A program made the position numbers and the translations under genes. From Planctomycetota bacterium (GTDB lineage Bacteria; Planctomycetota; GCA-002687715): a stretch of DNA of 64,000 nt. Below the pieces are notes generated by a model. It searched no databases, was not told the DNA's origin, and saw only the letters and a list, made by a program, of their open reading frames with translations. Shown here piece after piece: positions 16,938 to 57,574 of this stretch (within the stretch, counting starts at the first letter, position 1; every line of letters starts with the position of its first letter). Where the stretch lies: assembly GCA_009691765.1 (NCBI GenBank), contig SIAO01000002.1, positions 154,415 through 218,414 of the forward strand. Reading direction: 5' to 3'.

Positions 16938-17632
16938 TTTGGGGACTCCTTCAGACGCGCCAGCGCATCGGCGCCACCCTTCACTCGGTCTCCCACCCGC
17001 ACGAAAACCTCAGCCACCAAGTCGCGCGGCAAAAACACCTCGGCACGGCTACCGAATTTGATCATGCCGTAGCGCTCGCCACGCGCGAAACTCTGTCCCA
17101 AAGGCGCTGGGCAGACGATGCGGCGCGCAATCGCACCCGCGATTTGACGCACCAGCACTTTGCGGGGCCCCGAAGGCAGGTCTATCAGTAGCCCCAAGTC
17201 CATAGCCTCGTTGCGCTCGCTGCCAGCAGGGTCCCGAGCATCGAGAAATGCGCCAGGGCGATGCGCCAAGTGGCACACCGTCCCCTTCAGCGGCACTCGG
17301 TTCACGTGCACATCGAACACTGACAAGAAGATGCCGATGCGCACACACGGTCCACCGGTGAACTCGTTGGCCGGGATTTCCAGCACGTCGGTGACTTTGC
17401 CGTCCGCTGGGCTGACGCAGACATCTTCGCCTGCGGGCAGTGGCCGGTCCGGATCACGGAAGAAATTGAGCACGAAGGCATAGGCGCCGCCGCCCACAAT
17501 GGCGCAAACCACGCCAAACGGGCCACCCACGAGCACGAAGCCCGTAGCCGCACCTCCGAGAAAGAGCACGGCGAAAGCTGCGAGCTCTGGGATGCCATGG
17601 GGTGTGAGAGGCAAACGCATTGGGGCGCCCAT
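16934..17632 (-). CDS. psd: phosphatidylserine decarboxylase proenzyme
   Basis: ORF trimmed to MGAPMRLPLT. It has the Psd family core (SPADG, FLSVFDVH) and a terminal GST-like self-cleavage region (KFGSR). Its start overlaps the pssA stop by 4 nt. Confidence 0.8.
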   Translation of the reverse strand: MGAPMRLPLTPHGIPELAAFAVLFLGGAATGFVLVGGPFGVVCAIVGGGAYAFVLNFFRDPDRPLPAGEDVCVSPADGKVTDVLEIPANEFTGGPCVRIGIFLSVFDVHVNRVPLKGTVCHLAHRPGAFLDARDPAGSERNEAMDLGLLIDLPSGPRKVLVRQIAGAIARRIVCPAPLGQSFARGERYGMIKFGSRAEVFLPRDLVAEVFVRVGDRVKGGADALARLKESPK

Positions 17633-17649
17633 CGTAGGGCGGTTTGTAG

Positions 17650-18975
<1,326 letters not shown>

Positions 18976-19018
18976 AGCAGGTTTGCGCTGACGCAGAGCT
19001 TCCGGGGAGGAGGCGTTC

Positions 19019-19333
19019 GTGGACACTGATGATGCCAAGGCGCACCTGCGCCACACGCTTTTCTGGAGCGCGATGGGCCTCTTGGGACTCATCTTGTTCT
19101 TCGGGCAGTACTTGCCTGCGGTGCGCGACGCCGCCGACACCCGCGACCTCGTCGTACGCCTCGAACTGCGCATCGGCGAACTCCAAGCGGAGCGCGACAT
19201 GCTGCAAGCCCGTATCGCAGCAGTAGATCGCGGCGATCCCCATGCCATTCAGCGCGCCTTGCGCGAACATGACATTGTGCCCGCCGGAGTCACGCGCTTG
19301 GTCGAGAATGTGCCCGGCAGACAAAGACGATAA
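19019..19333 (+). CDS. ftsB: septum formation initiator, FtsB/DivIC-like
   Basis: 104-aa ORF with a single N-terminal TM helix followed by a coiled coil (LELRIGELQAERDMLQARIAAV). It sits immediately downstream of eno, the conserved eno-ftsB arrangement. Confidence 0.6.
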   Translation: MDTDDAKAHLRHTLFWSAMGLLGLILFFGQYLPAVRDAADTRDLVVRLELRIGELQAERDMLQARIAAVDRGDPHAIQRALREHDIVPAGVTRLVENVPGRQRR

Positions 19334-19379: not shown

Positions 19380-20402
19380 ATGAGCAACATTGACACAGTG
19401 GGCGACCTCGCAGCGGTTCAAAAACTGAAAGAGGCCTATGCCTCTTTGAAGACCGAAGTGGGGCGTGTGATTGTCGGCCAAGACGCGGTGGTGGATCAGG
19501 TGCTCATGAGCATCTTCGCCCGCGGCCATGGGCTCTTGGTCGGCGTACCCGGCTTGGCCAAGACGCTGTTGGTGAGCACGCTCGCCAAATCGCTCTCGCT
19601 CAGCTTCAACCGCATTCAATTCACTCCAGACTTGATGCCTTCAGACATCACAGGCACTGAAGTCATCCAAGAAGATCGCGCGAGCGGGCAGCGACACTTC
19701 AAGTTCATCCCGGGCCCGGTGTTTGCGCATGTGGTTCTGGCCGACGAAATCAACCGCACGCCTCCGAAGACCCAAGCGGCCCTGCTCGAAGCCATGCAAG
19801 AGCATCAGGTGACGGCCGGTGGACGGCGCCACGCTTTGCCCGCTCCGTTCTTCGTGCTGGCCACGCAAAACCCCATCGAACAAGAAGGCACGTATCCGCT
19901 GCCGGAAGCGCAGCTCGACCGCTTCATGTTCATGATCCGTGTTGATTACCCTAGCGCCGCCGAAGAGCTGAAGATCATTCAAGACACCACCGGCGCGCGC
20001 AGCGTGGAGTTGCGCCAAGTTCTCAACGCCGAAGAAATCCTCGCGCTGCAAGAAACAGTGCGCCGTGTGCCGGTATCCGACCACGTCGTGAACTACGCGC
20101 TCGAATTCGCACGTCGCACGCGTATCACCACGCCCGATGCCGACGACTTCGTGAAGCAGTGGGTGGCTTGGGGTGCTGGTCCGCGCGCCAGTCAGTACTT
20201 GGTGCTCGGAGCCAAGGCCCACGCTGTCTTGCACGGCCGCACTTGGGTGAGCGGCGAAGATGTGCGCGCCGTCGCGCATCCCGTGCTGCGCCACCGCATC
20301 ATCCGCAATTTCCGCGCCGAAGCGGAAGGCATCACCACCGATGGGGTCGTCGATCACCTCATCCGCGAAATCCCGCGCGCCGCCGCAGACCGCAGCGCGT
20401 GA
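19380..20402 (+). CDS. MoxR-like AAA+ ATPase
   Basis: 340-aa ORF with Walker A GVPGLAKT, Walker [10 protein letters not shown], and the MoxR-specific AAA_3 topology. It is the first gene of the Bat-like cluster. Confidence 0.9.
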
Positions 20403-20410
20403 AGCCTGCG

Positions 20411-21310
20411 ATGAGCGAGGACTATCGCAAGTACCTCGATCCGGCCGTGCTCGAAAAAGTGGCCGGGTTGGAGGTGAAAGCACGACTCGTGGTGGAGGGC
20501 TTCATGGCCGGCCGCCATGAATCGCCCTACAAAGGCTCGTCGGTGGAATTCGCGGAGCATCGCGAGTACGCACCCGGCGACGACCTGCGCCGGATCGACT
20601 GGAAGGTGTACGGCAAGTCAGACCGCTTTTATCTGAAAGAGTTTGAAGAAGAGACGAATCTGAAGGCGTACATCGCGGTGGATGCGTCAGCCTCGATGGG
20701 CTACGCCGGCGCGGGCCGTGTCAGCAAGCTCGAATACTCCAAGTACGCAGCCGCCGCCATTTTGCACTTGGTGCATCAACAGCGCGACTCGGGCGCCTTG
20801 GTCGCTTTCGGAAGTGGCATCAGCACATTCGTGCCGCCGGGCAGCAGCAGCGCGCATCACAGAAACCTCATCGAGAATCTCTCGGGGTTGAAAGCCGAAG
20901 GACCGAGCGGCATCGGGCCCGTGTTCGATGAAATCGCTTCACGCTTGCGGCAGCGTTCCCTTGTCGCAGTGTTCTCAGATTTGCTCGACGACGAAGCCTC
21001 CGTGCTGCGCGGGTTGCAACACATGGCGCATCGCGGCCACGATGTCATCCTCTTTCACGTGATGGACTCTGATGAACTCAATTTCCCTTTCGAACGGATG
21101 TCGCGCTTCGAAGGGCTCGAAGACATGGAGCGTTTGCTGCTCGATCCGAAAGCCGTGCGCGAGGCCTATCTCGCTGAAGTCAACAGTTTCCGTGCGCGAC
21201 TGACGGCCACGTGCCTCGCAGGCCGCATGGACTTCGTGGCGCTGGACACTTCCGCGCCGCTCGACAAAGCGCTTGGGACATGGCTCGCCCGACGCTCGGG
21301 GACCCGCTGA
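20411..21310 (+). CDS. DUF58 domain protein (MoxR partner, BatII-like)
   Basis: ORF 20159..21310 trimmed to MSEDYRKYLDP. It has the DUF58 blocks (SPYKGSSVEFAEHREYAPGDDLRRIDWKVY) and a degenerate VWA-like fold (IAVDASASM). Confidence 0.8.
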   Translation: MSEDYRKYLDPAVLEKVAGLEVKARLVVEGFMAGRHESPYKGSSVEFAEHREYAPGDDLRRIDWKVYGKSDRFYLKEFEEETNLKAYIAVDASASMGYAGAGRVSKLEYSKYAAAAILHLVHQQRDSGALVAFGSGISTFVPPGSSSAHHRNLIENLSGLKAEGPSGIGPVFDEIASRLRQRSLVAVFSDLLDDEASVLRGLQHMAHRGHDVILFHVMDSDELNFPFERMSRFEGLEDMERLLLDPKAVREAYLAEVNSFRARLTATCLAGRMDFVALDTSAPLDKALGTWLARRSGTR

Positions 21311-21311
21311 C

Positions 21312-23522
21312 ATGGGCTCCTTCTTTGGCGCACCGGCAATGTTGTGGTGGGGCCTCGCGGCTTCCGTGCCCATTCTCATCCATCTTTTCTCGCGCCAGCG
21401 CTATCAGAAGCTGCCGTGGGCCGCGATGGAGTTCTTGCGCCGTGCCTTCAAGAAGACGCGGCGGCGCGTGCGCCTCGAGCATCTGCTGATCCTGCTCTTG
21501 CGCGTGTTAGCGCTGCTGCTGTTGGCGCTGGCTTTGGCGGAACCACTCCGCGATGTGGCCAGCCTCCTTGGAGGCGAACGGCGCGAACTGGTTTTGATCT
21601 TGGACGACAGCTTCTCCATGGCTGTTGAAGAGCCCGACGGATCTACGCCGTTCACGCGCGCGCGTGCGAAAGCCGTAGCGCTCGTCAACGAACTTCGTGG
21701 CGACCGAGGCGACAGCGTCAGCGTGCTGCTCGCGGGGCGTCCCGTGCGCTTGCTGCGCAAGGCCAGTGCTGAACTCGACAAGAGCGCCGCAGAACTTGGC
21801 AGGCTCGAAGTGAGCGACCTCGCCACAGATCTCGGCGGAGCACTCTCCACCGCCTCTGCTCTGCTCGAATCACTGCCTGAAGGCGTAGAAGTCGTGGTGC
21901 TCTCGGATGTGCAGAAGACCGCCTTCGGTGACAGCACCTCAGAAGCGGTGGCGCGCGACTTGGCGCTCGCGGCACGCGCGATCACAGCGCGCAAAGGCAC
22001 GCTGCGTTTCGTTCTGCCTCGCACAGGCAACAGCGACAACCTCGCACTGACCGCGCTGGAATGCCGCGAACGCAGTGTCATCGCGGGACGCGCGGCGCGC
22101 ATGGTGGCCACGCTCACGAACTACTCCGACAAGCCGCAATCAGGCACGGTGCGCTTTCACGCCGACGGCGCCACCGAGCCTTTTGAATCTCGCGAGATCG
22201 AAGCGCTGCGGCCCGGTGCTTCAGAAAGCGTGGACGCGCGTGTGATGTTCAGCGCGGCGGGCAGCCATGTCGTAGAAGCACATTTCGCAACCGACGCACT
22301 CGCGCCAGACAATCGTCGCGCGCTCGCACTCGATGTTCGCAGCGACATCCGCGTGCGCATCGTGGATGGCGAACCTTCTGCAGAGGCCGGCGAAGAAGAG
22401 TCGTTCTTCCTTGCTGCGGCTCTCGACCCCGGCATCGAAGGTGTGCGCTCCCCCTTCGAAGTGCAGGTGTTGGACGAAGGACGCTTTGAACAAACCGCGC
22501 TCAAGGGCGTGGACATCGTCGTTCTCATGAACACGAGCACGCTCTCGCCGCGCAAGGCCGAAGATCTGCGCAACTTCGTGACGGCTGGTGGCGCACTGTG
22601 GGTTTTCCCGGGTGATCGCACGCAACCCGAAACTCTGAACACGCTCTTATTCCAAGAAGGCAACGGACCTTTGCCCGCCGCCATCGCAGGACCTACCTTG
22701 GTTGCGCCGACAGACTCCAGTTTCCGTTTGAGTGGGCCCGATCCGATGCCGTCAGAGCTCGCCTACTTTGCCGACAAAGATGTGGCCTCATGGCTCGGGC
22801 GCGCGCCGATTCACAAGCACTGGCGCCTCGAAGCGCCCAAAGCCCCAAGACAGCAACGCGTTCTTCTCAACCTCGCTCCTCAAGATGGCAGCATTGCGGC
22901 GCAACCCGCACTCGTGGTGAATCGCTTCGGAGCGGGTCGTACTGCGTTGTTCGCTTTCAGTGGCGATCAAGAGTGGAGCGATCTGCCTGCCTTCCCCACC
23001 TTTGTGCTGCTCGCTCGCGAAATGGCTTGGTGGCTGAGCGAACATGTTTCCAGTGGCGACAACTTGTTGGCTGGCAGTTCGTGGCGGTACTCACTGCGTG
23101 GTCGCGTGAAGGAAGCGCTCTTGGCTCATGAAGGCGGCACGGCTGTGGTGTTGCGCCCACTGCGCCATGAAGGCGCTCAGCATGAAGAACTGCAAAGCGA
23201 CACTCTGCTGCGCGCGCGGCTCTGGCGCGCCGATCTCATCCCGCACCCGGGTGAGACTCTCGAAGACACGTCTCCACGCTGGGTCGCGGTGAATGTGGAT
23301 TGCAGCGAATCCGATTTGCACCGCGCCGATGAAGCCTGGCTCCGCACCGTGTTCGGCGTAGAAACCCAATTCGAGAGCGAGGGGCGTGAGCCAGAAACGG
23401 TGACACGCGCTTCCGCCGCAGAACATGCGTGGTGGTGGCTGCTGTTCGGCGCACTGCTCGCACTCTTGGCAGAAACGGCTTTGTCGCAATGGTTCGGCGC
23501 ACGCGCGGAGGCCAAGGCATGA
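21312..23522 (+). CDS. BatA-like VWA protein with N-terminal double-transmembrane anchor (TIGR02226-type)
   Basis: Trimmed to MGSFFGAPAMLWWGLAASVPILIHLF...LLILLLRVLALLLLALALAEP, the BatA/two_anch N-terminus. A VWA MIDAS motif (LILDDSFSM) follows it. Overlaps the DUF58 stop. Confidence 0.75.
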   Translation: MGSFFGAPAMLWWGLAASVPILIHLFSRQRYQKLPWAAMEFLRRAFKKTRRRVRLEHLLILLLRVLALLLLALALAEPLRDVASLLGGERRELVLILDDSFSMAVEEPDGSTPFTRARAKAVALVNELRGDRGDSVSVLLAGRPVRLLRKASAELDKSAAELGRLEVSDLATDLGGALSTASALLESLPEGVEVVVLSDVQKTAFGDSTSEAVARDLALAARAITARKGTLRFVLPRTGNSDNLALTALECRERSVIAGRAARMVATLTNYSDKPQSGTVRFHADGATEPFESREIEALRPGASESVDARVMFSAAGSHVVEAHFATDALAPDNRRALALDVRSDIRVRIVDGEPSAEAGEEESFFLAAALDPGIEGVRSPFEVQVLDEGRFEQTALKGVDIVVLMNTSTLSPRKAEDLRNFVTAGGALWVFPGDRTQPETLNTLLFQEGNGPLPAAIAGPTLVAPTDSSFRLSGPDPMPSELAYFADKDVASWLGRAPIHKHWRLEAPKAPRQQRVLLNLAPQDGSIAAQPALVVNRFGAGRTALFAFSGDQEWSDLPAFPTFVLLAREMAWWLSEHVSSGDNLLAGSSWRYSLRGRVKEALLAHEGGTAVVLRPLRHEGAQHEELQSDTLLRARLWRADLIPHPGETLEDTSPRWVAVNVDCSESDLHRADEAWLRTVFGVETQFESEGREPETVTRASAAEHAWWWLLFGALLALLAETALSQWFGARAEAKA

Positions 23523-25900
23523 ACCCCGCCGAGCGTGAAACTGCTGGCTTCGTGCTGCTCGGCGCCCCTGCTGCATGGGTGATCGTGCTGCTGATCGTTC
23601 CAGCTTTGATCGGCTTCACAGCGCTTTTCTATCGCCTCGGACGTGACCCTTCGCGCAAAGCTCGCTTGTTCCTTGCCAGCTTGCGCGCAGTCGTGGTGCT
23701 GGTTTTGGCTGCGCTATTGATGGACCCCGCATTCGAATCGCAAATCGTCGAACGCAAACCTGTGTTGACCGTCGTGCTCGCAGATTCCAGCGCTTCCATG
23801 CGCACCAAAGACGACTACGCGCAAGTTCCAAACTTAGCGAGCGCAGTGCGCGCAGCAGCATCCCTCGACGCAACAACGCCCTTGGGCGGTGTAGAGCGCA
23901 TCGAGCTCGCACGGCGCGTCCTCGATGACGGTAGTGAGAAGAGTTTCTTGAAGGAGCTGGCGAAGAAACATCCGCTGAAACTCTTGGGCTTCGGCGAACG
24001 CGTCACGCCCGCAACCAGCTTTGCCAGCTTGCAAGCAGACGAACGCGCCACAGCGATTGGTCTCGCGCTGCAACGCACCTTCGACGACCCGGAAGTGAAG
24101 AGCAGCCCGGTCGGGAGCATCGTGCTCATCAGCGATGGTCGCAACACAGCGGGCCCCTTACCGACGGACTTTGTGGAGCTCGCACGCAATCGGCGCATTC
24201 CGATCCACTGCGTGGGTGTCGGCGACCCTTCCGCGCTGCGCAATCTCAAGATCGTCAGTGTGCTTGCCCCGGCGGTGGCGCTGCTGCAAGACAGTGTGGT
24301 CATCGAAACGCGCGTGCGCCAACGCGGGTTAGACGGCGCCGCGGCCACACTGCGTCTGCTCGTCGATGGCAATGTGGTTGAACAGAAAGAGTTCAGCTTC
24401 GGCGACGCGGACCAAGACCAAGTAGTGCGCTTGATGCACAGGCCGACGCGTGTGGGCCAGCAAGAATGGGTGCTGGAGCTGGTGCCACAGCCGGGCGAAG
24501 CCGACACTGCCGACAACCGCCGCACTGTGCCCATCTTGGTGAAAGACGAACGCATCAAAGTCTTGTATGTCGAAACCTATCCGCGCTGGGAGTACGCCAC
24601 GCTGAAAGATTTCCTCACCCGTGGCGAAGATGCATTCGAAACACACTGCCACCTCATCGATGCCGACCGCGGCTTCCCGCAAGAGTCTTCGGCGCGTTTA
24701 CCACCACTGCGCGAACTGCCAGAAGCACCCGAGGATTTGTTCAGCTACGACGTGATCATCTTTGGTGATGTCGACCCCGAGGGCCTTGGCCACGGCGACC
24801 CCGAGCGCGCGCGTCGTTTCCAACAGAATCTGCGCACCTTCGTCGAACAAGGCGGCGGCTTCATCATGCTGAGTGGCGAGCGTTTCTCGCCTGGCGCATG
24901 GAAAGACACGCCCATCGCCGAAGTGCTGCCCATCATCATCGACCCCTCGGAAGTCAGCGCATCCAGCGGTGATTCCGGTTTCCATCTGCGTCTCACAGAA
25001 CTCGGACGCGAGCATCCTGTGATGCAGATCGTCGAAGACCCGCTGCGCAACCGCACTATCTGGGAAGGTGGCGACGACCCGCTGGCACTCGCGCCGCTGT
25101 GGTGGTTCGCCGCGGTGAAGAAAACGAAACCGGGCGCGATGGCGCTGGCGCTGCACTCCAGCGCTTCCAACTTGCACGGGCCCCATGTGTTGATCGCCAC
25201 GGGCACCTATGGCGAAGGCCCAGTGATCTTCTCAGCGCTCGATGAAATGTGGCGTTGGTACCGCGATCAAGGCCCCTTCTCGCATCATCGCTTCTTCGGC
25301 AACCTCGTGCGCCACGCTGCGCGCACGCGCCTGCTCGCAGGCGACAAACGCTTCCGCTTGAACGCCGATCGCAGTGAAGTTGAACAAGGCGCGCGCCTGA
25401 GCCTCGCCGCCTCTGTCAAAGACCACGCCTTCTTGCCCGCGACCAGAGAAACTCAAGAAGTTGTGCTGCGCGAGCCCACAGGGCGCGAACGCCGCGAGCT
25501 CTTGCACCGCGTAGAAAACGGCAAGTACGAACGCGCTTTCACTGTGGGTGAACTCGGAGAATGGAGCGCGTGGCTGCCGAGCGAAGACGGATTGAGTGAC
25601 GAGCGCATTGCGCCCCTCACATTCCGTGTGGTGCTCGCTGACGCTGAGCAGCGCGAACCCGTCATGGATGAGCAGCAACTGCGTGCGTTAGCCAGTGCCA
25701 CCGGCGGGCGCTACGTCGGCCTCGAAGGAGCACGCGAACTCTTGAGCAGCGCGGCCTCGGGCACGGTGGAAATCCCAAGGCAGCGCCGCGTGTTGCGTTT
25801 GCGCGACAGTGACAGCCCTTGGCTGCACTGGATTCCGGCCATTCTTGTGACGCTCCTCGGTATTGAGTGGATGGTGCGCAAACGCCATAGACTCATCTAA
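23519..25900 (+). CDS. second BatA-like paralog: two-TM N-terminal anchor + VWA domain + C-terminal TM helix
   Basis: Trimmed to MNPAERETAGFVLLGAPAAWVIVLLIVPALIGF.... It has a VWA MIDAS motif VVLADSSASM and a C-terminal WLHWIPAILVTLLGIEWMV anchor. ATG overlaps the upstream stop (ATGA). Confidence 0.7.
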   Translation: MNPAERETAGFVLLGAPAAWVIVLLIVPALIGFTALFYRLGRDPSRKARLFLASLRAVVVLVLAALLMDPAFESQIVERKPVLTVVLADSSASMRTKDDYAQVPNLASAVRAAASLDATTPLGGVERIELARRVLDDGSEKSFLKELAKKHPLKLLGFGERVTPATSFASLQADERATAIGLALQRTFDDPEVKSSPVGSIVLISDGRNTAGPLPTDFVELARNRRIPIHCVGVGDPSALRNLKIVSVLAPAVALLQDSVVIETRVRQRGLDGAAATLRLLVDGNVVEQKEFSFGDADQDQVVRLMHRPTRVGQQEWVLELVPQPGEADTADNRRTVPILVKDERIKVLYVETYPRWEYATLKDFLTRGEDAFETHCHLIDADRGFPQESSARLPPLRELPEAPEDLFSYDVIIFGDVDPEGLGHGDPERARRFQQNLRTFVEQGGGFIMLSGERFSPGAWKDTPIAEVLPIIIDPSEVSASSGDSGFHLRLTELGREHPVMQIVEDPLRNRTIWEGGDDPLALAPLWWFAAVKKTKPGAMALALHSSASNLHGPHVLIATGTYGEGPVIFSALDEMWRWYRDQGPFSHHRFFGNLVRHAARTRLLAGDKRFRLNADRSEVEQGARLSLAASVKDHAFLPATRETQEVVLREPTGRERRELLHRVENGKYERAFTVGELGEWSAWLPSEDGLSDERIAPLTFRVVLADAEQREPVMDEQQLRALASATGGRYVGLEGARELLSSAASGTVEIPRQRRVLRLRDSDSPWLHWIPAILVTLLGIEWMVRKRHRLI

Positions 25901-25905
25901 CTGTC

Positions 25906-28900
25906 ATGCGCCACGCGCTGTTGCTGCTGTTCTTCGCAAGCTGCCTCGCAGCTCAGAGTCTCTCCACCGCGCAAGCCACGGTGCCTGATGATCCGGTCGT
26001 GCAGCAATTGCTGTTGAAGGCCGATGAGGCGCTCGCACAGCAAGACTTGAATCGCGCGCTCGCACACTGGCAAGACATTCTTGACCGCCTCGGTTCCAAG
26101 GTGATTCAGGTAACGAAGGGCGAGCGCAGTCAGCACCCGACCGATCCCACAGTGGCGGGCGATCTCTTTCGCGGCGTGCGTGGCCATGTGATGGAACGCT
26201 TGCGCCAGTTGAACGCAGAACAGTTCGCCGTATACGTGCAGAAAATGGAACCCAAGGCGCGTGAACTGCTGCAACGCGGTATCGCAGCCTTCGACGAAGC
26301 AGCGTTGCGCGATGCAGCTTCGCGCTGGTTGCTCACACCGTCAGGACAAGCCGCTGCCTTCACGCTGCTCGATTTGCTGCTCGAACAAGGGCGTTTCGAT
26401 GAAGCGCTGTTGCAAGCGCAGCGCTTGGAAGTGGATCTGCGCACTTTCGGCGCAAGCGTCGCGACGCAACTGAATGCCACCGCACGCATGGCGCTGGCAC
26501 TGCGCGGGCTCGGACGCCGCGCTGCGTTAGAGGAACTGGTTGTCCGCTTCAGCGGCGCAGAGCAGGCTCAAGCGCTGCAAGTGCTGGGGAAGTCGCTCCC
26601 TGCCGCGGACTGGTTTCTCTCCCTCAGCCAAGAGCTTCCGCCAAGCGCTCCAACAGCAACCATCGCGTTCCCGCCTCTCGACGTCGTGCGGCGGCGCATG
26701 TGGGCCACCGAGTATCAGCGGAACAATGAAGCCCGCGAGCTGTTCGTGTTCGATGAACGCGAAGTGAACGCGCGCGTAGGTTGGTTCCCCGTCATGCCTA
26801 GCGTGCAGGGCGCTTCGGTGTACTGGAGCGACGGACTCACCCTGACGTGCGGCTCAATGTTCACGGGCACGGAACTCTGGCCCGCAGTGCATGGCCCGCA
26901 AAACCGCCACGCTGGACGCCGCAATCGCAATCTCTTGTTCCGCGTTGTGGTGGATGGTGATCTTGCCGTCGCGAGCCTCGAAGGTCCGCCATCGTCCAAA
27001 GCACAACGTGCATGGCAAGGCTTCGAGACCATTGAAGCCATTCCCAATCGCAAACTCGTGGCGGTGGATTCCGCAACGGGCGTGCAGCGTTGGAGTCACC
27101 ACACACCCGGCGAGATGCCGCGTGAAGACCGCGATTTCTTGCGCCGCCTCAGCATCGTGCAGCCTCCGGTCGCGCGAGGCAACACGTTTTATGCCACAGG
27201 CACTGTGCTGCTCGGTGTGTTCCATCACTGGGCCTTGGCCATCAACCGCAACACGGGCGCACTACTGTGGCGCACATACCTCGGCGCGGGCCAACTCGAA
27301 CTGAACATGTTTGGCAATCCTGTGAAAGAGGCTGTGCCGCTGCCTCTCACAGAAGCCGACGGCGTGCTTTATTGCTGCACCAACATGGGCGTATTCTGCG
27401 CTGTCGACGCGCTCACCGGGACGCTGCTTTGGGCGAGCACCTATGCACAAGAGGGCATTCCTGGAACCGATTCGCCTGTCACTTACGAGCGCCATCCTGG
27501 TTGGGTGCCTGCCGCTCCAGTCGTGCACGGTTCGCGCGTCTATGCCGCACCGCTCGATGCGTTGACCGTAGTGGCCTTCGAGCGCGACAACGGCAAGGTG
27601 CAAGCCTTTCCCGCGACGCGCCGCACGCTGGCGAATCCCAACACTTGGTTTCTTGGTTTGCACCGTGGCGCACTCTTGGTGGCCGGCAATGTCATCAGCG
27701 CAGTCGATCCCGATTCAGGCGCGCTACGCTGGCGCAGTGTGGAAATCCCGGCGCGCTCTGGACGAGCTGTGTTTGAGGGCTTCCCCAGCGTCGTCGGTGA
27801 CAGCGTGTGGGCCGCCATCGCCGATCCGCGCACGCGTGGCAGCGCCATTCATCGCTACGCCCTCGACGGTGGCGCATTGCTCGAACAAAACGAAGCACGC
27901 GATCAGTCACTGCTCGGCAATCTTGTGGTGACGCCAGAAGCCTTGATCATCGCCAGCGAAGACAGCGTCGCTGTGTGCTTCGACCGCGAGGAAGTGGAAG
28001 CGCGATTAATGCGCGAAGCGCGTTCAGCAGGGGCCAGCTCTGCCACGCATCTGCGTCTCGGCGAACTCCTCTCGCGCAAACCTGATCACATCGGCGCCAT
28101 CGCCGCTTTCGAAGCCGCCCTCGCCGCTGCCGAACGCAGCGCCGATGCTGCCGCGCGCGCCGCGGCCAAACATGCGCTCTTTGAAGCTTGGCTGAACGCC
28201 GCCACAGCGCGCCGTGACTTGCCCACGGGCATCACGCCTGAAGTCTGTTTCGAGCGTGCGCTTGGCCATGCGACGGATGCACGCGCGAAAGCCCGCGTGC
28301 TGTTGGCCGCTCTCGATGCAGCGCTGCGCGATCAAAACCATCAAGCCGCCATCCAGCAGTGCGACGCGATCCTTGCAAGTGTTGCTGACGAACCCGCCAC
28401 TCCACTCGGACGCTTGGTCGAACTCCTCGGCCGAGATTCCCCTGATGTGGCTGTTCCAGCAGGGCTGCTTGCTGCACTCGCTGCCGCGCGAGTGACTGAG
28501 ACCGCTGGCGACACACGCATGGCCGCACGCCGCTGGCAAAATGTGCGCGAACGCTATGGCCGTCAGTTTTTGAACGGCGAAACGGTGCGCTCGGTGGCTT
28601 CGCGCGCCTTGCAAGCACTGCTCACGCTCGCTGGCCGCGCTGCCTACACAGAAGTCGAGGAACAAGCCCAGAAGCGTTTTGCAGCGGCATCAGCCGCGCA
28701 AGACGAGCAAGGACTGCGCACCGTCGTCGAGAACTGGCCAGAGTCTGCAGTGGCACTCGAAGCTCACGCGGCTCTTGTGAAGCTGTTGATACAGCACGGG
28801 AAATCCGTCGAAGCCGTCTTGGAATTGCAGCACCAATTCCGCGATCGCGGCAACGCGCCTGTTGCTCAAGTGGCGCTCTACGCCGAGCTCTTGGGCTCGC

Positions 28901-30285: not shown

Positions 30286-30340
30286 TGTTGTGCCCCGCGG
30301 AGGCGTGAGCCGCGGTGGGTTTGTGGCAAACTACGCCGGG

Positions 30341-31528
30341 ATGTTTATGCCCTCAAAACGTTTTTTCAATGTTGGTTGGGTTGCTGCTGCGTTCCTGCTC
30401 GGAGCCAGTGGACTGGCTTTCACCTACCGCGCCACGGATGTTGCGCCGAGCACGAGCAGCAACACCGCAAACGCGCACTCGGCACTGCCGACATCTGGGC
30501 CACGCACCAAGACCGCCGACCCCGAACGCGTGCGCCGCGCCGTCGACAAAGGCCTCACATGGCTACGCCGTGCGCAAGACAAAACTACAGGCGCGTGGGT
30601 AGAAAACATTGGCTACAAACTGAACTCTGAGTTTGTGGTCACCGAAGCCAGCAAGCCGCACGTTGGAGTCACTTCCCTCGCGCTCATGGCGTTCCTCTCC
30701 GGAGGTCACTTGCCAGGCCGCGGGCAATACGCAGATGTCGTCGAGCGCGGCATCGACTTCGTGCTCTCCAGCGTCGACGCTGAGACGGGCTACATCAGTC
30801 GTGACGGTACGCGCATGTACAGCCACGCTTTCGCCACACTGCTGTTGGCGGAGGTCTACGGCATGACTCACCGCGAAGACTTGAAAGAGAAGTTGCAGCG
30901 CGCGGTGGATGTGACCGTGAAGTCGCAGAACTCCCACGGAAGCTGGCGCTACTTGCTCTACTCCAGCGAATCGGACATGAGCATCACCGTATGCCAAATC
31001 ATGGCGTTGCGTGCCGCGCGCAACAAAGGCATCCGCGTGCCCAAGACTGTGATCGACCGTGCCTACGACTATGTCGTGCGCAGTGCCTACAAAAACCCCG
31101 CCTCACCGGAGTACGGCGGCTTCAAGTATCAAGAGAAGGACCGCTCGCGCACGTCGTTTGCACTGACCAGCGCGGGTGTCGCCACGCTGTACCACTCTGG
31201 AGTCTATGAGCATCAGCTCATCCAAGCAGGGCTGCAATATCTGCGCAACGAAATCGCCGAAGTCAGCCGCCACTACGGTGGGCGCCAAGGCCACTACTTT
31301 TATTGGTACGGGCACTACTACGCTTGCCAAGTGTTCTTCATGGCAGGCAACGACAATGCGGATCTGTGGCAGTTTTATTGGGACCGCATGAGCCGAGAAT
31401 TGCCGGACAACCAAGAAGCCGATGGCTCGTGGAACAACCTCGTCGGGCCCGGGCCCGCGTTCTCCACCGCTGTGGCCAGCATCATTTTGCAGATCCCCAA
31501 CCAATACCTACCCATTTTGCACCGCTAG
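30341..31528 (+). CDS. secreted prenyltransferase/squalene-oxidase-repeat (alpha/alpha toroid, terpene-cyclase-like) protein
   Basis: Trimmed to MFMPSKRFFNVGWVAAAFLLGASGLAF, a signal/anchor sequence. It has repeated G-W and aromatic-rich helical hairpins (TGAWVE, HGSWRYLLYS, DGSWNNLVGPGP) typical of PF00432/PF13243 repeats. Confidence 0.6.
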   Translation: MFMPSKRFFNVGWVAAAFLLGASGLAFTYRATDVAPSTSSNTANAHSALPTSGPRTKTADPERVRRAVDKGLTWLRRAQDKTTGAWVENIGYKLNSEFVVTEASKPHVGVTSLALMAFLSGGHLPGRGQYADVVERGIDFVLSSVDAETGYISRDGTRMYSHAFATLLLAEVYGMTHREDLKEKLQRAVDVTVKSQNSHGSWRYLLYSSESDMSITVCQIMALRAARNKGIRVPKTVIDRAYDYVVRSAYKNPASPEYGGFKYQEKDRSRTSFALTSAGVATLYHSGVYEHQLIQAGLQYLRNEIAEVSRHYGGRQGHYFYWYGHYYACQVFFMAGNDNADLWQFYWDRMSRELPDNQEADGSWNNLVGPGPAFSTAVASIILQIPNQYLPILHR

Positions 31529-31571
31529 CTGCGCGGCGGGAACTTTCCTTCGCGCCGTACGACCAAACACC

Positions 31572-33884
31572 ATGAGCCCACTTGCCACCGTTGTCGCTCG
31601 CCTGCACAGCCTTGGCCGACGGCGCACTCTCGCCGTGGCGCTGCGCGGTGCGACTGGCCCCATGGCGGCCGCTGCTGGGCTGGCCGTCACAGGCTTGCTC
31701 TTGGATTGGTGGTTGCATTTGCCCGTGGCAGTGCGCGCCATCCATCTCGCGGCCTCTGTCGCTTTCGTGGGCGTGCTGTGTTGGCGTCAGCTTGTGAAAC
31801 CACTCTCGCGGCGCCCAGGGCTCGAGCAGCTCGCGCTGCTCGCAGAAGCGTCCGATCCGCGGCTCGGCGATCAGCTCATCTCGGCGTTGCAACTTGAACG
31901 CGACTTGAACGCCGGCGTCGCGGTGGAATCCCCAGAGCTCATTCACGCCCTTGTGGCCGATAGCGCGCAACGGTTCAGCACAGAGACTTTCCGCAATGCA
32001 GCACCGCTCGCACCGGCCTTCGGCGCTTTGTGCTTGGGGTTGCTCGCTTGCTGTGTGCCCGCAGGCATCGCCGCAGCCGACAGCGAAATCGCTTCCATCT
32101 GGCTTCAACGCTCGTTGTTGCTCCGCGAAGTCCCTTGGCCTCGCATGCACTATCTTGTGGTGGAAATCTCTGACGCCGCCGAGATGAGCCGCGAGATGCA
32201 GGGCGACAATTTCGTTTTCCATGTAGCGGAACGCACACCTCTGCAAGTGAATGTGAGCGCCGAGCCGGGCACCAAACTCCCCGACTCCGTCAACATGCTG
32301 GTGACGCCGATAGGTGACACAAGCGATGCGCGCGAAATACCGCTTGGGCGTTCACCCTCAGGCGCGTTCCAACACATCTTTCCGCCGTTGATGGCGTCGT
32401 TCTCCTTCTCGGTGAGCGGCGGCGATGACGACGACGGATTGCCGCTGTACGAAATCCGCGTGGCTCGCGCACCGCGTGTCACAGCCTTCAGTGCGCATTA
32501 CGAGTATCCGAGCTACACCGGCATGCAGCCTCGGGACCTCCCCGACGCGAACATCTCTGCACCCGAAGGCACGCGCATCACGCTGCATTTCACGGTGAAC
32601 ATGGGGCTCACGGCATTTCGTCTGAACTTCGAGAAGGCGGGTGCTGCCGAGCCGACGCTGCAACCCGACGGCACTTGGAACCACACTTTCACAGTCAGCG
32701 CTTCGGATGTCTGGAGCTGGAAGTTGCAAGGCGAAAACGGCGTGGCTTCTACTGCGGTGCCGCGCTACGTCGTCACCTGCGAAAACGACCAGCCACCGCA
32801 CCTCGCGCTAGAGCTGCCGGGCAGCACGACTCTCTTGGTCACTCCGCAAGCCGTCATCCCTTTCAAAGGTGTCGCAAGCGACGACTTCGGTGTCACCGAA
32901 CTCGGCCTGCGCTATGGCACAGATCCGAAAGTGCTGGGGCTCAGTGTGCCTTTCAATGCAACGGATCTCGCGACGCCCTTGGGAGGCCGCACGGTTCCAT
33001 TTTTCCGTGCTCAGCCCGTGGCAGCGTTGCGGCTGGCTGCAGAAAGCGCGACCGAAGCCATGCCCTCGCGCCCCGAACGTGCACCCGGCGATGGCGAGCG
33101 TTTCGCAATGCGTCTCGCGGTCGCCGACAACCGCGTCACAGCGACGCAGCCCGAACCGCACCGCATTCTGTCCGAACAAGAGTTTCGCGTGCAAGTCATC
33201 TCTCCTCAGGAACTGCAAAAGGAGTTTTCGCAGCGTCAGGTGCGCCTGCGCGATCGCGCTGCGGACATCACCACACTGCTCGATCAGCGCATCGCCGAAA
33301 CCAGCGACTTGATTGCGGTGCTGCGCGCCTCGAGCGATCAGCCTCCGGGTGAACCGCGTTTCGTTGCTCTCGAACAAGGCGTAGTGCGCATTCAGGGCGA
33401 ATTGGGTTCGCTGTCGCGCCAGTTTCAGCGCATCGCTGATGGCTATTTGTGGAATCGCCTCGACCACGGCTTTCTCACGGAAAAGCTGATGGAAGTGCTC
33501 GGTGCCGGATTCCTTGCGCACCCCGAACAAGAATCGAGCGCCGCTTGGGCGCAGGCTTTGAAAGACGTACGCCCCGCCATCGACGAAGCCACCCTGATGG
33601 GCCGCGTGGCTGCCATTCTGCAACTGGCGCTGAACACAGCCTTGGAGCTTGCGCCTGCTGCCACGAAACAGTTCGCCGTGGTGAACGCCACGCCCATGCC
33701 AGCGCGTCTTGCACCGCTCGAAACCGTCCTGCCGCTGTTGCAAAAACTCCGCGACGGAGTGGCCGCGCTCACTGAGCGGCTGGAGTCGTGGGAAAACTAT
33801 CTCGACGTCATCCAGGGCTTTCGCGAGCTGCTGGATCTTGAAAAAGGTGTGGAGCACAAGCTCCGCAAAGTGACCAACAAGTGA
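31572..33884 (+). CDS. large membrane-anchored protein (two N-terminal TM helices + ~700-aa extracytoplasmic domain), DUF4175-like candidate
   Basis: Trimmed to MSPLATVVARL.... It has two hydrophobic helices (AAAAGLAVTGLLLDWWL; AIHLAASVAFVGVLCW) followed by a long soluble domain. The family name is uncertain without a search. Confidence 0.55.
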   Translation: MSPLATVVARLHSLGRRRTLAVALRGATGPMAAAAGLAVTGLLLDWWLHLPVAVRAIHLAASVAFVGVLCWRQLVKPLSRRPGLEQLALLAEASDPRLGDQLISALQLERDLNAGVAVESPELIHALVADSAQRFSTETFRNAAPLAPAFGALCLGLLACCVPAGIAAADSEIASIWLQRSLLLREVPWPRMHYLVVEISDAAEMSREMQGDNFVFHVAERTPLQVNVSAEPGTKLPDSVNMLVTPIGDTSDAREIPLGRSPSGAFQHIFPPLMASFSFSVSGGDDDDGLPLYEIRVARAPRVTAFSAHYEYPSYTGMQPRDLPDANISAPEGTRITLHFTVNMGLTAFRLNFEKAGAAEPTLQPDGTWNHTFTVSASDVWSWKLQGENGVASTAVPRYVVTCENDQPPHLALELPGSTTLLVTPQAVIPFKGVASDDFGVTELGLRYGTDPKVLGLSVPFNATDLATPLGGRTVPFFRAQPVAALRLAAESATEAMPSRPERAPGDGERFAMRLAVADNRVTATQPEPHRILSEQEFRVQVISPQELQKEFSQRQVRLRDRAADITTLLDQRIAETSDLIAVLRASSDQPPGEPRFVALEQGVVRIQGELGSLSRQFQRIADGYLWNRLDHGFLTEKLMEVLGAGFLAHPEQESSAAWAQALKDVRPAIDEATLMGRVAAILQLALNTALELAPAATKQFAVVNATPMPARLAPLETVLPLLQKLRDGVAALTERLESWENYLDVIQGFRELLDLEKGVEHKLRKVTNK

Positions 33885-33894
33885 GGAGGCTCTC

Positions 33895-36708
33895 ATGCTG
33901 CGTTGCCTGTTGATGGCGCTGCTCGTGTTGCACTGCGCCGAGATGCTGCCTGCCCAAGACGCCTCCACGGACAAAGAACTTCAAGTGATCCTGCGCGAGC
34001 AGGAGAACGCTGTGCGCCGCATCAAAGCTCTACGCGGCCGCGTGGTGCGCTTGCGCGATCGCTTGGTGCGCGAAAACAACGAACGCAGTGTGAAACTGTT
34101 GGACAGTGCTTTGGCCAAACTCGACAGCATCGATCTCGAAAAGCAGTTGGGCAATGTCGCCGAGCTCGTGCGCAAGGGCCAAGCCTTCCATGGTCTCTCG
34201 GAAGCCGCAAAGGCCGTTGGCGAGATTCAACGCATCATCGACTTGCTCATGGAAAAGCCGCCAGAGCAGAGCGAACGCGAGAAGCGCGCGGAAGAATTGG
34301 CGCAAGCCTCGGCGCAACTTGCAGACCTCGCCGCGCGCGAAGAGGCCTTGAAACAAAGCACTGAAGCGGTGCGCGACGGCATGAGCGCGGAAGCGCGGGC
34401 CGCGGCTGCTGCTTTGGGTGATCGCGTCAAAGCGTTGCGTGAACAGCAGCGCCGCTTGGCCACAGAGCTGACCGCAGAACTCAATGCCGAACAGGCCATC
34501 GACCGCGCTGCACAAGCCGCCGAAGAACTGCGTAGTGCCGCAGCCGCACTGCGTGATGCGGAGATGTCTTTGGAGCGCTCGGCACAACTCGCGCAAGCCG
34601 CTCGCCGCGCCGGAGAATTGGCCAAGCAAGCCAACGCCGTCGCAAAAGCGGCCAAGACTACGGCACGCAGCAGCGATGCGTTGCAGGATGTCAACGCTGC
34701 CCTCGCCGACACAAGCAGCACACCCACACAACGCCTTGAAGCTCTGGAGCGTGCCGCGCAGGCCACGCAACGAGCTGCAGAATCTGCTGCTGAAGCCGCA
34801 GAGGCCACGACGAATCCTGCAGAGGCTTCAGCGGAGCGCGCCTTGGCCGATGCTCTTGCGAAAACCGCCGAAGCCACCGCTGCTGCCGCGCGCGCATCCA
34901 CCAGCGAAGCGAGCGCTCGTGATAAAGCGGAAGCCGCGGCCCGCGCCACTGCGAAAAACGCTGCTACGGCGGCAGAGGCTCAAACTACCGCAACGCAACG
35001 CGCCGCCGAAACTCTTGCGGAAAAATCCAAGGCAGCAGCGGCAGCGACGCCTGAAGCGGAGCAAGCGTCTGAAGCCATGAAGGACGGCGCTGCGTCCTCC
35101 GACGCTGCGCAAGATGCCATGAAATCAGGCGCACCTGACAGCGCCGCGCAAAGTGCGGCGGAAGCTGCTGCCGCCTTCGCGCGCGCGCAAGCTGCTCTCA
35201 GCGAAAGCGCCGCAACAGAAGCCTCACAGCAGAACGCACCATTGAACGCGAGCAACGCTGCCGCGAAGGCTGCACAAAGCGCGGCCAAATCGCTCCCGAA
35301 GGAAGGGGCCGCTGCCGAAGCAGCCGCAGCGTTGGAAAAGGCCGCGAGTGAAGCGCAGAGCAGCGCACAAGCCGCCCATGCAGGGAGCAAGCAAGCGCAG
35401 CGTGAACATGCCGAAGCGGCAGCCAAGGCCGCGGAGGCCGCCGCCGCCAAACTCGCCGAAGCGAAACGCGACTTGAGTCGCCGTAAAGAAGACAACGCCG
35501 CAAAAGCGAAAAAGCAGCGCGATCTTTCTCGCAAGATCGACGAAGTGAAACGCGCCGCTGCGGAGCGCACCGAGAAACCGTTCGAGGCCGCGAGCAAGGC
35601 GCTCGAAGAAGCCGCGCAAGCGCAGCAGCAAGGCGCGCAAGCGAGCGAATCCTCTGACAATGCCGGAGCCGACAAGGCGCAACAGCAAAGTGGTGAGGCT
35701 CTCGATCGCGCTGCGCAAGCGTTGCAAGACGCTGCCAACGCGCGAGAGAAGAATGAGCAAGCCGATGCGAGCGAACAGCAAGAGCTGGCGCGGCGTCAGA
35801 AGGAACTTCAAGAACAAGGGCAGCAGCTCGCCGAATCGATGAAGAACATCTCTCCTGAAGGTGCCAGCAAGGCATCTTCCGCGAGTGAAAGCATGGACTC
35901 CGCGCAACAGAGTTTGCAGCGCAAGGACGCTGGCGCTGCTGCCGAGCAAGAGCAAGAGGCCATCGACAAATTGAAAGATGCGCAGAAGAAGGTGGACGAA
36001 GAGCGCGGGAAGTACGACGACCTGCAGCAAGAGGAACTGCTCTTCCAGCTCAAAGCCGAGGTTGAGAAGTTGATCGTCATTCAAAAAGAGATCAATGCGA
36101 GCTCGCTGAAAGTCCACGCGGAAGCCGAAGGTGGTCGCGTGAGCCGCTCGTCGCGCCGCACATTGCAAGAATTGGGCACACGCGAGACGGCGGCTTCGCA
36201 GACCCTTGGCGGACTCCGTAAATCGATTGAAGAAGAACAAGGCGGCGGCATGGTGTTCTCGTGGCTGATGGAACGCATCGGCAACGACATGAACACCGCC
36301 ACGCAAGACCTAGCCAAAGGCACCGTGACCCAAGTGACTCTTGGCGCTGAAAACGATGCGCTGCAAGGCTTGGAAGACATGCGCCAGACGCTCGAAGATG
36401 AAATCGAATCGCGTAAGAAGATGAAGCAAGGCGATCCGCAGGAAGGGCAGCCACAGAAGCCTCAGTTGGTCGGCATGCTCGCGGAACTCCTGCTCGTGCG
36501 CCGTATGCAGCAGGGCTTCAACACGGATCAAGAAAAGTTCTTTGCGCGCAATCCGAAACTTGGTGCCGATGGCGATCCTCTCGACAAGCTGGTGTTAGAG
36601 CGCCTCGCCCACCGCCAGTCCGCCATTCGTGAGCGCTTCGAGAAACTGTTGGAGAAAATGCAGAGCGGCCAACCCGCCCCTGCTGAAGGTGAAGGAGAAG
36701 GCAAATGA
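33895..36708 (+). CDS. secreted 937-aa coiled-coil protein with an extensive Ala/Glu/Gln/Lys-rich low-complexity core (TIGR02302/DUF4175-like candidate)
   Basis: Signal peptide MLRCLLMALLVLHCAEMLPAQ. Residues ~150-700 are almost entirely A/E/Q/K/S heptad-like repeats, and the termini are conserved-looking. It has strong coding periodicity despite the repetitive GCN-rich DNA. Confidence 0.65.
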   Translation: MLRCLLMALLVLHCAEMLPAQDASTDKELQVILREQENAVRRIKALRGRVVRLRDRLVRENNERSVKLLDSALAKLDSIDLEKQLGNVAELVRKGQAFHGLSEAAKAVGEIQRIIDLLMEKPPEQSEREKRAEELAQASAQLADLAAREEALKQSTEAVRDGMSAEARAAAAALGDRVKALREQQRRLATELTAELNAEQAIDRAAQAAEELRSAAAALRDAEMSLERSAQLAQAARRAGELAKQANAVAKAAKTTARSSDALQDVNAALADTSSTPTQRLEALERAAQATQRAAESAAEAAEATTNPAEASAERALADALAKTAEATAAAARASTSEASARDKAEAAARATAKNAATAAEAQTTATQRAAETLAEKSKAAAAATPEAEQASEAMKDGAASSDAAQDAMKSGAPDSAAQSAAEAAAAFARAQAALSESAATEASQQNAPLNASNAAAKAAQSAAKSLPKEGAAAEAAAALEKAASEAQSSAQAAHAGSKQAQREHAEAAAKAAEAAAAKLAEAKRDLSRRKEDNAAKAKKQRDLSRKIDEVKRAAAERTEKPFEAASKALEEAAQAQQQGAQASESSDNAGADKAQQQSGEALDRAAQALQDAANAREKNEQADASEQQELARRQKELQEQGQQLAESMKNISPEGASKASSASESMDSAQQSLQRKDAGAAAEQEQEAIDKLKDAQKKVDEERGKYDDLQQEELLFQLKAEVEKLIVIQKEINASSLKVHAEAEGGRVSRSSRRTLQELGTRETAASQTLGGLRKSIEEEQGGGMVFSWLMERIGNDMNTATQDLAKGTVTQVTLGAENDALQGLEDMRQTLEDEIESRKKMKQGDPQEGQPQKPQLVGMLAELLLVRRMQQGFNTDQEKFFARNPKLGADGDPLDKLVLERLAHRQSAIRERFEKLLEKMQSGQPAPAEGEGEGK

Positions 36709-37361
36709 AAGCGCTGTCTCTGCTCGCTGCGAGTGTGTTGCTGCTCCCGACGCTTGTCGCACAAGAACCGGAAACGCCTGCCACAGATCCGGGTGAATTG
36801 CTGCGCCAGATTCAGCGCAACATGCAAGCTGTCGAGAAGGGCCTCGATGAACTGGCCACGGAGGAAGCCGGTGCTGCTGGCCGCCGCACAGTGGAATCCA
36901 TCAATCGCGCCATCGAAGAGATGAAGAAGAACGGCCAGCAGGTCACCAAAGACATCGACGAGATCATCAAGCAGATGAAGAGCTCGGGCGGTGGAGGCGG
37001 TGGTGGCGGCGGGCAAAGTGGCGGCAAAGGCGGAGAGAAAAGCAGAAACAGTGGCAAAGAACGCGGCAGCGCCAAAGACCGCAACAAGCCCGAGCCCGGG
37101 CAAGAAGATGGCGAAGGCAAGCAGTCGAAAGGTGGTGGCAAGGAGGACAACACCTCCCCCGATCAGCCGGGTGGGCGCAACGAAAACGGCCCGGGGCGCC
37201 CAGAAGATCCGCGCGAGCGCTTCCGCCAAGAACTTCTCGAAGGCCGCTGGGGCGTGTTGCCTCCGGAGCTGCGCCAGCGCCTGATCGAGCGCAACTTCCG
37301 CGAGTTCACGCCCGAGTATCAAGAAGAATTGCGCGCCTACTTCCGCCGCCTCGCGCGCTAG
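36705..37361 (+). CDS. small secreted Gly/Lys/Glu-rich protein, last gene of the cluster
   Basis: Signal peptide MKALSLLAASVLLLPTLVAQ. It has a poly-Gly tract (SSGGGGGGGGGQSGGKGG) and a conserved-looking C-terminus (FRQELLEGRWGVLPPELRQRLIERNFREFTPEYQEELRAYFRRL). ATG overlaps the upstream stop. Confidence 0.55.
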   Translation: MKALSLLAASVLLLPTLVAQEPETPATDPGELLRQIQRNMQAVEKGLDELATEEAGAAGRRTVESINRAIEEMKKNGQQVTKDIDEIIKQMKSSGGGGGGGGGQSGGKGGEKSRNSGKERGSAKDRNKPEPGQEDGEGKQSKGGGKEDNTSPDQPGGRNENGPGRPEDPRERFRQELLEGRWGVLPPELRQRLIERNFREFTPEYQEELRAYFRRLAR

Positions 37362-57535: not shown

Positions 57536-57574
57536 AGCAGCGGCACTATGATCTGCCTCCCCTACGGAGGCCCC

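Follow-up and report, generated by a model that had tools for sequence, protein, structure and literature searches.

What does a MoxR-DUF58-VWA module do when the genes for a giant propeller protein, a toroid protein and a coiled-coil protein stand in line with it? This question is raised by a locus of nine genes (G1 to G9, positions 19380-37361) in a 64,000-nucleotide stretch of contig SIAO01000002.1 from a Planctomycetota bacterium (assembly GCA_009691765.1); we refer to this whole stretch as the window and count positions from its first letter. Of the bacterial gene clusters for which we know of no mechanism, MoxR-DUF58-VWA (Bat-like) modules are some of the most widespread, and a client is known to us for almost none of them. 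The planctomycetal envelope is atypical, the periplasm is enlarged and division does not depend on FtsZ; to our knowledge, few of the genes responsible for these features have been identified. We found that the nine genes constitute one tightly packed operon that is conserved across many Planctomycetota. Judged by its protein domains, this operon is a diverged and expanded relative of the MoxR-DUF58-BatA_N-DUF4175 envelope operon, and it probably encodes a single complex that is anchored in the inner membrane, faces the periplasm and is assembled or remodelled by MoxR-DUF58. No paper in the literature that we searched describes this arrangement, which is apparently undescribed.

A preliminary description, made from the letters of the window alone, had placed nine plus-strand genes here. 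All of them were confirmed as co-directional open reading frames (ORFs), and its domain assignments were all reproduced by profile annotation. Start codons of G1-G9 were chosen from the lengths of homologs and of annotated proteins (annotated locus tags in the metagenome-assembled genome, MAG, of the window: EXS14_02170 and EXS14_02180). With these starts, the junctions from G1 to G9 measure, in order, +8 (moxR to the DUF58 gene), +1, -4, +5, about +55 to +61, +43, +10 and -4 nt, and the stop and start codons of G3/G4 and of G8/G9 overlap as ATGA. The wording 'no gaps' is therefore slightly overstated, because two junctions measure 43-61 nt. Within the cluster we found no sigma-70-like promoter sites (0 versus 2.3 expected), and terminator-like hairpins occurred at chance level (22 versus 22.8 expected). 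A minus-strand gene borders the cluster at each end, and the neighbours are minus-strand or unrelated housekeeping genes. Upstream lie an unannotated 403-aa ORF and then psd, pssA-like and panC; downstream lie genes for an RlmI-like methyltransferase, an acyl-CoA dehydrogenase and an ornithine decarboxylase. The GC content of the cluster is the same as that of its flanks, so that it is not a recent island. Rfam and tRNA scans of the window returned no RNA genes.

We assessed conservation by a genome scan with a pattern derived from the G5 alignment, using one genome per species (GTDB). Relatives were found in 110 genomes, nearly all of the G5-carrying ones being Planctomycetota, and 80 loci were fetched and mapped with nine hidden Markov models (HMMs) built from the window proteins and their first matches. 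The synteny counts cover only those loci with enough sequence to evaluate. G1-G2-G3-G4 stood directly before G5 in 55 out of 57 loci (two of the 55 with a frameshifted G3), and G6-G7-G8 followed G5 in 50 out of 53, with order and gene sizes kept; G9 came next after G8 in most loci. The linkage of the middle genes is thus kept on both sides, and these genes did not fall into unrelated well-characterised families. Independently retrieved metagenome contigs carried the same nine genes at near-identical sizes, with a G5 identity of 25-36%, and a cultured carrier of the operon is Engelhardtia mirabilis Pla133 (L021; NZ_CP036287, 4,350,045-4,373,653). Across 25 distant loci, the median identity to the window proteins was 64% for G1, 53% for G6, 45% for G2, 32% for G4, 30% for G3, 29% for G8, 26% for G5 and G9, and 25% for G7, making G6 the second most conserved gene after MoxR, under a constraint nearly as strong as that on the ATPase. 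Since the order is kept in about 50 other species-level genomes, the cluster stands far beyond chance. It could be argued that two or more unrelated gene sets merely lie side by side, as the halves of the cluster are apart in a minority of genomes. However, 50-55 species-level genomes have retained both the order and the spacing while most of the proteins share 25-30% identity, stop and start codons overlap, and no internal promoter or terminator signal rises above chance, so that we regard a side-by-side arrangement of unrelated sets as highly improbable.

Table 1. The nine genes of the operon, with positions in the window.
Gene	Position	Strand	Length	Product
G1	19380-20402	+	340 aa	MoxR-type AAA+ ATPase (AAA_3 / MRP subfamily), cytoplasmic
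G2	20411-21310	+	299 aa	DUF58 protein, cytoplasmic VWA-like MoxR partner
G3	21312-23522	+	736 aa	BatA-type membrane protein
G4	23519-25900	+	793 aa	G3 paralog, VWA membrane protein
G5	25906-30285	+	1459 aa	Secreted TPR/PQQ-repeat propeller protein
G6	about 30341-31528	+	about 393 aa	Secreted or tethered single-domain (alpha/alpha)6 toroid
G7	31572-33884	+	770 aa	Inner-membrane protein, Ig/FN3-like sandwiches and helical bundle
G8	33895-36708	+	937 aa	Secreted coiled-coil protein
G9	36705-37361	+	218 aa	Small secreted protein with a Gly run

The first genes correspond, as had been proposed, to a MoxR-DUF58-VWA module, with AAA_3, DUF58 and BatA matches in G1, G2 and G3. Specifically, G1 matched AAA_3 at 4.7e-63 (211.4 bits, cutoff 27) and AAA_lid_2 at 8.3e-18 (64 bits), and its Walker A (GVPGLAKT) and Walker B (VVLADE) motifs are both intact. 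G2 matched DUF58 at 2.3e-43 (148 bits, cutoff 23.4) and VWA_2 at 2.2e-8, contains a metal-ion-dependent adhesion site (MIDAS) motif, DASAS, at residue 91 and has no transmembrane (TM) segment. G3 matched BatA_N at 8.7e-16 (58.6 bits, cutoff 25.9), TIGR02226 at 1.8e-19 (69.8 bits, cutoff 23.05) and VWA_2; it consists of an N-terminal double-TM anchor, a VWA domain with its MIDAS motif (DDSFS) at residue 98, an Ig-like and a GATase1-like domain, and a C-terminal TM helix. Taken alone, G4 gave a weak VWA match, and when the families were compared with each other, G4 proved to be paralogous to G3 over its full length (hhalign probability 99.5%, 605 columns), in agreement with the earlier view of the two as tandem BatA-like proteins. 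The layout of G4 is two TM helices, VWA (MIDAS motif DSSAS at residue 89), Ig-like, GATase1-like and DUF7408 domains, and a C-terminal TM helix. Members of the G3 family matched BatA in 22 out of 22 cases, GATase1_like in 13 out of 22 and CARDB in 11 out of 22, and members of the G4 family matched GATase1_like in 21 out of 22 and VWA in 17 out of 22. The architecture common to both families is two TM helices, VWA, Ig-like (CARDB/Big), GATase1_like (PF07090), DUF7408 and a C-terminal TM helix.

Given that G1-G3 match the MoxR, DUF58 and BatA proteins of Bat loci, the cluster might be a canonical Bat (Bacteroides aerotolerance) operon that confers oxidative-stress tolerance. The two indeed share MoxR and DUF58 (encoded upstream of batA-E in Bat loci), a BatA N-terminal double-TM anchor with a VWA domain, and TPR-containing partners, and G3 and G4 correspond to BatA and BatB in being VWA membrane proteins. 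However, BatD and BatC or BatE-type proteins were not detected (no BatD, SH3 or stand-alone TPR proteins among the nine products at E <= 0.01), and G3 and G4 have GATase1-like and Ig-like domains in addition. Moreover, VWA proteins of the GATase1-like kind and a DUF4175-type protein are what the module had as its ancestral partners, whereas the Bat operon has no propeller, toroid or DUF4175-like proteins; G5 and G6 are not parts of it, as the preliminary description had stated. In Leptospira, bat mutants reportedly gave no sign of a role in oxidative stress (PMC3557215). Taken together, we consider a canonical Bat operon very unlikely.

A different type of operon, RL3499-RL3502 of Rhizobium leguminosarum, attributed to Vanderlinde et al. 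in 2011, reportedly consists of MoxR, DUF58, TIGR02226 and TIGR02302 (DUF4175) genes. The planctomycetal operon resembles this type in uniting a MoxR AAA_3 protein, a DUF58 protein, a double-TM BatA_N/VWA protein and a probable DUF4175-type protein. It differs in that the BatA-type gene is doubled (G3 and G4), that the presumed DUF4175-type protein has diverged and was apparently divided into G7 and G8, and that G5, G6 and G9 are inserted; in addition, the window proteins fall under the DUF4175 threshold, and none of them matched TIGR02302. The title under which it is cited (PMC5118466; PMC5700661) ascribes to the RL3499-RL3502 operon an effect on the integrity of the envelope and on the shape of the cell.

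The likeness to DUF4175 emerged from the G7 family. G7 itself matched no Pfam family. In its confidently predicted structure (predicted local distance difference test, pLDDT, 89), a TM hairpin is followed by a helical segment in the cytoplasm and by a third TM helix; next come three tandem Ig/FN3-like sandwiches and, at the C-terminus, a long helical bundle. The family to which it belongs has no Pfam model of its own and is large: searched against representatives of 50%-identity clusters, it reaches 17,657 of them at E <= 1e-3, of which 3,870 pass E <= 1e-30. Three distant homologs (P0061, P0063 and P0064) match DUF4175 at profile positions 181-335, two of them above the curated threshold, and residues 6-451 of G7 align to P0061 with an hhalign probability of 99.8%. 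These profile comparisons indicate that G7 is a diverged relative of the N-terminal part of DUF4175. For G8, DUF4175 was matched by 10 out of 25 orthologs (best 3.7e-7, at profile positions about 634-743). Less securely, and via these Pfam matches of orthologs alone, G8 may thus represent a split-off C-terminal part of DUF4175.

Simpler, uncultured relatives of the operon (L085, 381-16347; L087, 2095-16883) are informative about its history. They contain orthologs of G1, G2, G3, G4 and G7 in one co-directional cluster (hmmsearch E 1e-41 to 1e-147), in which the HMMs of G5, G6 and G9 had no match. Here a single polypeptide of 1022-1157 aa constitutes the DUF4175-like protein and is encoded between the G3-like and G4-like genes, and extra DUF4159 and TPR-peptidase genes lie upstream of moxR. 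In full, these contigs, which encode P0061 and P0063, carry genes for a TPR-Peptidase_MA_2 protein, DUF4159, MoxR, DUF58, BatA/VWA, a long DUF4175-like protein, a VWA-GATase1_like protein and a protein of about 345 aa. Since G1, G2, G3, G4 and G7 occur jointly without G5 and G6 in these relatives, the five form an older core. By the same gene content, G5, G6 and G9 are planctomycetal additions, and the planctomycetal operon apparently split off G8. The idea of a lineage-specific variant, put forward in the preliminary description, therefore applies to G5, G6 and G9; it does not apply to G7 and, less securely, G8, which appear to be diverged DUF4175-type proteins of the ancestral module. In the L085 cluster, toxin-antitoxin genes (VapB/PIN and Uma2) are inserted.

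G8 begins with a signal peptide, and the core of the protein (residues 130-690) is 34% Ala and 60% A/E/Q/K; its C-terminal region is conserved and is the part that resembles DUF4175. A strong AT skew of 0.379 at 34001-36000 coincides with this Ala/Glu/Gln/Lys-rich core and is a coding-composition effect, not a replication signal. G9 has a signal peptide, an N-terminal helix and a Gly/Gln/Ser/Pro-rich linker; it matched no Pfam family and, in an alignment of 20 orthologs, shows the conserved C-terminal motif WGxLPxxxRxxFRxxGxxDxPxxYRxWIDxYYRRLN. We also considered whether G9 is the extreme C-terminus of DUF4175, which no member of the family supported.

Among the additions, G5 is the largest. 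It carries a signal peptide and matched PQQ_2 at 3e-29 (PQQ, pyrroloquinoline quinone). Its sequence suggests a TPR-like region (residues ~25-270), a first PQQ-repeat propeller (~280-690), a TPR/solenoid region (~700-1040) and a second propeller (~1050-1459), the propellers being recognized by DxxTGxxxW blade motifs and by composition. G5 homologs are 1450-1680 aa long and share the invariant motif GQxELNMF, with which the genome scan was made. Against the PDB, the G5 family profile matched BamB (4e-12), PQQ alcohol dehydrogenases (4e-11) and TPR proteins, and G5 is about equally distant from BamB and from the alcohol dehydrogenases. No close solved quinoprotein was found for it in this comparison, and its scores against the quinoprotein models were 37.1 bits for TIGR03075 (cutoff 480) and 37.3 bits for PF01011, with no single stretch significant.

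These matches bear on a second explanation, in which G5 (or G6) is a periplasmic enzyme that MoxR, DUF58 and the VWA proteins load with a metal or cofactor. The founding mxaRSACKL system is of this kind: experiments showed that methanol dehydrogenase, a periplasmic PQQ propeller enzyme, receives its Ca2+ only with the help of MxaR (MoxR), MxaS (DUF58), MxaC/MxaL (VWA), MxaA and MxaK, each of which is needed (PMC12276312). The makeup of the module (MoxR, DUF58 and two membrane VWA proteins) equals that of mxaR/S/C/L and likewise stands beside an exported PQQ-repeat propeller protein, so that the propeller, which had been put outside the canonical set, is indeed absent from BatA-E and yet has a precedent next to MoxR-DUF58-VWA genes. 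In further support, G5 lies in the PQQ-repeat propeller superfamily, where quinoprotein dehydrogenases match it about as well as BamB, and the conservation of G6 (median 53% identity) is enzyme-like. However, G5 scores far under the quinoprotein family cutoffs and is not recognizable as a quinoprotein dehydrogenase, it evolves fast (26% median identity), unlike a catalytic core, and G6 lacks the DxDD motif (see below). Moreover, no MxaJ, MxaI or cytochrome cL (MxaG) was found among the products of the cluster or its flanks and no PQQ synthesis genes in the cluster; equivalents of MxaA and MxaK are missing as well, and DUF4175-type, coiled-coil and toroid proteins are present instead. Finally, the same MoxR core exists without any propeller. 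On balance, cofactor insertion of the mxa kind seems unlikely to us.

G6 had been described as terpene-cyclase-like. The protein gave weak SQHop_cyclase/Prenyltrans matches, and its predicted structure is a single (alpha/alpha)6 barrel that follows a disordered linker of ~55 residues (pLDDT 87; predicted template modelling score, pTM, 0.82), a modelled fold that would place G6 in the terpene-cyclase/prenyltransferase superfamily. Its likeness to squalene-hopene cyclase is limited to QW-type repeats. The DxDD motif (searched as D.D[DE]) is absent from the window protein and from 28 out of 29 family members, and the scores against the cyclase models were 30.5 bits for TIGR01787 (cutoff 322.7) and 26.5 bits for TIGR01507 (cutoff 431). 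Because the class II DxDD motif is missing, G6 should not be read as a terpene cyclase. A class II terpene cyclase, with neither DxDD nor a full-length family match, was ruled out.

In many relatives (L002, L021, L023, L024, L044, L047, L063 and L068), we observed an operon of 11 genes. The first extra gene, located directly before moxR, encodes a protein of 650-900 aa that is paralogous to the N-terminal half of G5 (TPR and propeller 1), and the second encodes another toroid, which is found after G9 or in tandem with G6; in L002 the two are at 971-2929 and 21843-23000. The operon of the window contains neither the G5-half paralog nor a second toroid.

With its adjacent MoxR, VWA and propeller proteins, the cluster also invites a further explanation, namely that it serves in conflict or defence like the MoxR-vWA-beta-propeller 'ternary' systems of Kaur et al. 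2020. In line with this, G1 gives a secondary match to PF20030 bpMoxR, at 45.8 bits. This score, however, compares with 211 bits for AAA_3, the propeller is of the exported PQQ type, effector and effector-associated (EAD) domains are missing from the cluster, and PADLOC matched 0 out of 9 proteins. In addition, the architecture is invariant in about 50 genomes, as opposed to the effector displacement seen in conflict systems (criteria in PMC7159879), and the locus has housekeeping flanks and uniform GC content. By ATPase clade, effector content, invariance and PADLOC, we reject the defence reading and consider such a system extremely improbable. Overall, none of four known labels fits the cluster: canonical Bat operon, mxa cluster, ternary conflict system and terpene cyclase locus.

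How, then, might the nine products work together? MoxR ATPases and their VWA partners mature or remodel specific protein complexes. We propose that G3, G4 and G7, which cross the membrane, would offer short cytoplasmic handles to MoxR-DUF58: in G3 and G4 these would be short basic loops, and in G7 the helical segment on the cytoplasmic side. In the periplasm, the MIDAS sites of the G3 and G4 VWA domains may bind partner proteins by their acidic residues, with a metal ion as the bridge; for the BatA-type inner-membrane protein BB0173 of Borrelia, it was shown experimentally that the VWA domain faces the periplasm (PMC5700661). G5, G6, G8 and G9, all of which carry export signals, would be the exported partners or clients. 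Among them, G5 and G6 could be clients or scaffold subunits specific to planctomycetes, with the Ig-like domains of G7 and the long coiled coil of G8 forming the stalk that carries them. Calling this an assembly system, as the preliminary description did, draws on precedents in these protein families. By analogy with the RL3499-RL3502 mutants, the cellular role is likely to be the building or maintenance of the cell envelope or periplasm, and not aerotolerance as such. The module is fixed phylum-wide beside a defined exported set (a propeller/TPR giant, a toroid, a coiled coil and a small protein), which nominates these proteins as its candidate clients or partners, and a phylum-wide envelope operon with a propeller-solenoid protein is a reasonable candidate for the unusual envelope features of planctomycetes.

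Several observations weigh against a single envelope complex. A cytoplasmic AAA+ ATPase would have to act on periplasmic domains, a difficulty common to the entire Bat/MoxR-DUF58 class. The DUF4175 assignment of G8 is strained by the window protein, which scores 18.8 bits (under the 27.3 cutoff), and by a weak hhalign match of G8 to the long DUF4175-like P0063 (probability 17.5%). In addition, G5-G9 occur without the MoxR half within 10 kb in L003/L004, L010 and L078, and in L013, L016 and L018 G1-G5 are kept while G6-G9 do not adjoin G5 and G7/G8 are not next. These separated halves in a few genomes indicate that physical linkage is not obligatory. Among the AAA_3 and DUF58 genes covered from the transposon-sequencing table of Planctopirus limnophila, all are non-essential; as their orthology to the operon was not established, we draw no conclusion from them. 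On the other hand, G5 stays with either half and the break points vary by lineage, which ties the halves together. The labels of some MAGs that carry the operon look wrong: L018 is named 'Ca. Kuenenia stuttgartiensis' despite a high-GC ORF pattern, and the names of L053 ('Ca. Paceibacteria') and L003/P0007 ('Deltaproteobacteria') are also doubtful. L018, L053 and L003/L004 are likely mis-binned or mislabelled.

A more specific proposal takes the layout of G5 as its starting point. The 'membrane-coat-like' proteins of the Planctomycetes-Verrucomicrobia-Chlamydiae (PVC) group consist of a beta-propeller followed by an alpha-solenoid, are 1039-1287 aa long, and one of them is found in the paryphoplasm (Santarella-Mellwig et al., 2010, PMC2799638). 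Like them, G5 is a planctomycetal protein, is predicted to be exported and has helical repeats after propeller 1, which amounts to a resemblance; unlike them, G5 has an extra N-terminal TPR region and a second, C-terminal propeller. The operon could accordingly be imagined as a Planctomycetota-specific machine that organizes the periplasm or shapes membranes, with membrane-coat-like G5 and G6 on a DUF4175-type stalk (G7 and G8), loaded or remodelled by MoxR-DUF58, and with a role in the envelope, in membrane invaginations or in FtsZ-less division. A lead for a division role is AdvA, a DUF4175-domain protein that Acinetobacter baumannii needs for division and that is essential there (PMC7481262). 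We rate this more elaborate proposal as quite unlikely, and the envelope complex described above, without the coat, remains the explanation that we favour.

In the surroundings of the operon, the divergent neighbour of moxR is the ORF 18037-19248 (-), which lacks a Pfam family, as do the 300-400 aa ORFs 41180-42130 (-) and 42103-43182 (+). About 1.7 kb upstream of the operon, 16107-17713 (-) encodes a phosphatidylserine synthase-like protein (CDP-OH_P_transf) and a phosphatidylserine decarboxylase; these enzymes belong to envelope lipid synthesis, and their adjacency to the operon is not kept in L001. Further downstream, 59840-63734 (+) holds three genes that make up a GlcD/GlcE/GlcF-like glycolate (or D-lactate) oxidase set (an FAD-linked oxidase, an FAD_binding_4 protein and a CCG/4Fe-4S protein) of ordinary metabolism. 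Just before it are two large neighbouring ORFs without a Pfam family, 54536-57535 (+) and 57548-59773 (+), of 999 and 741 aa. The 741-aa ORF gave a weak match to the G6 toroid HMM (E 4.6e-10), and the two may be another toroid-containing orphan pair.

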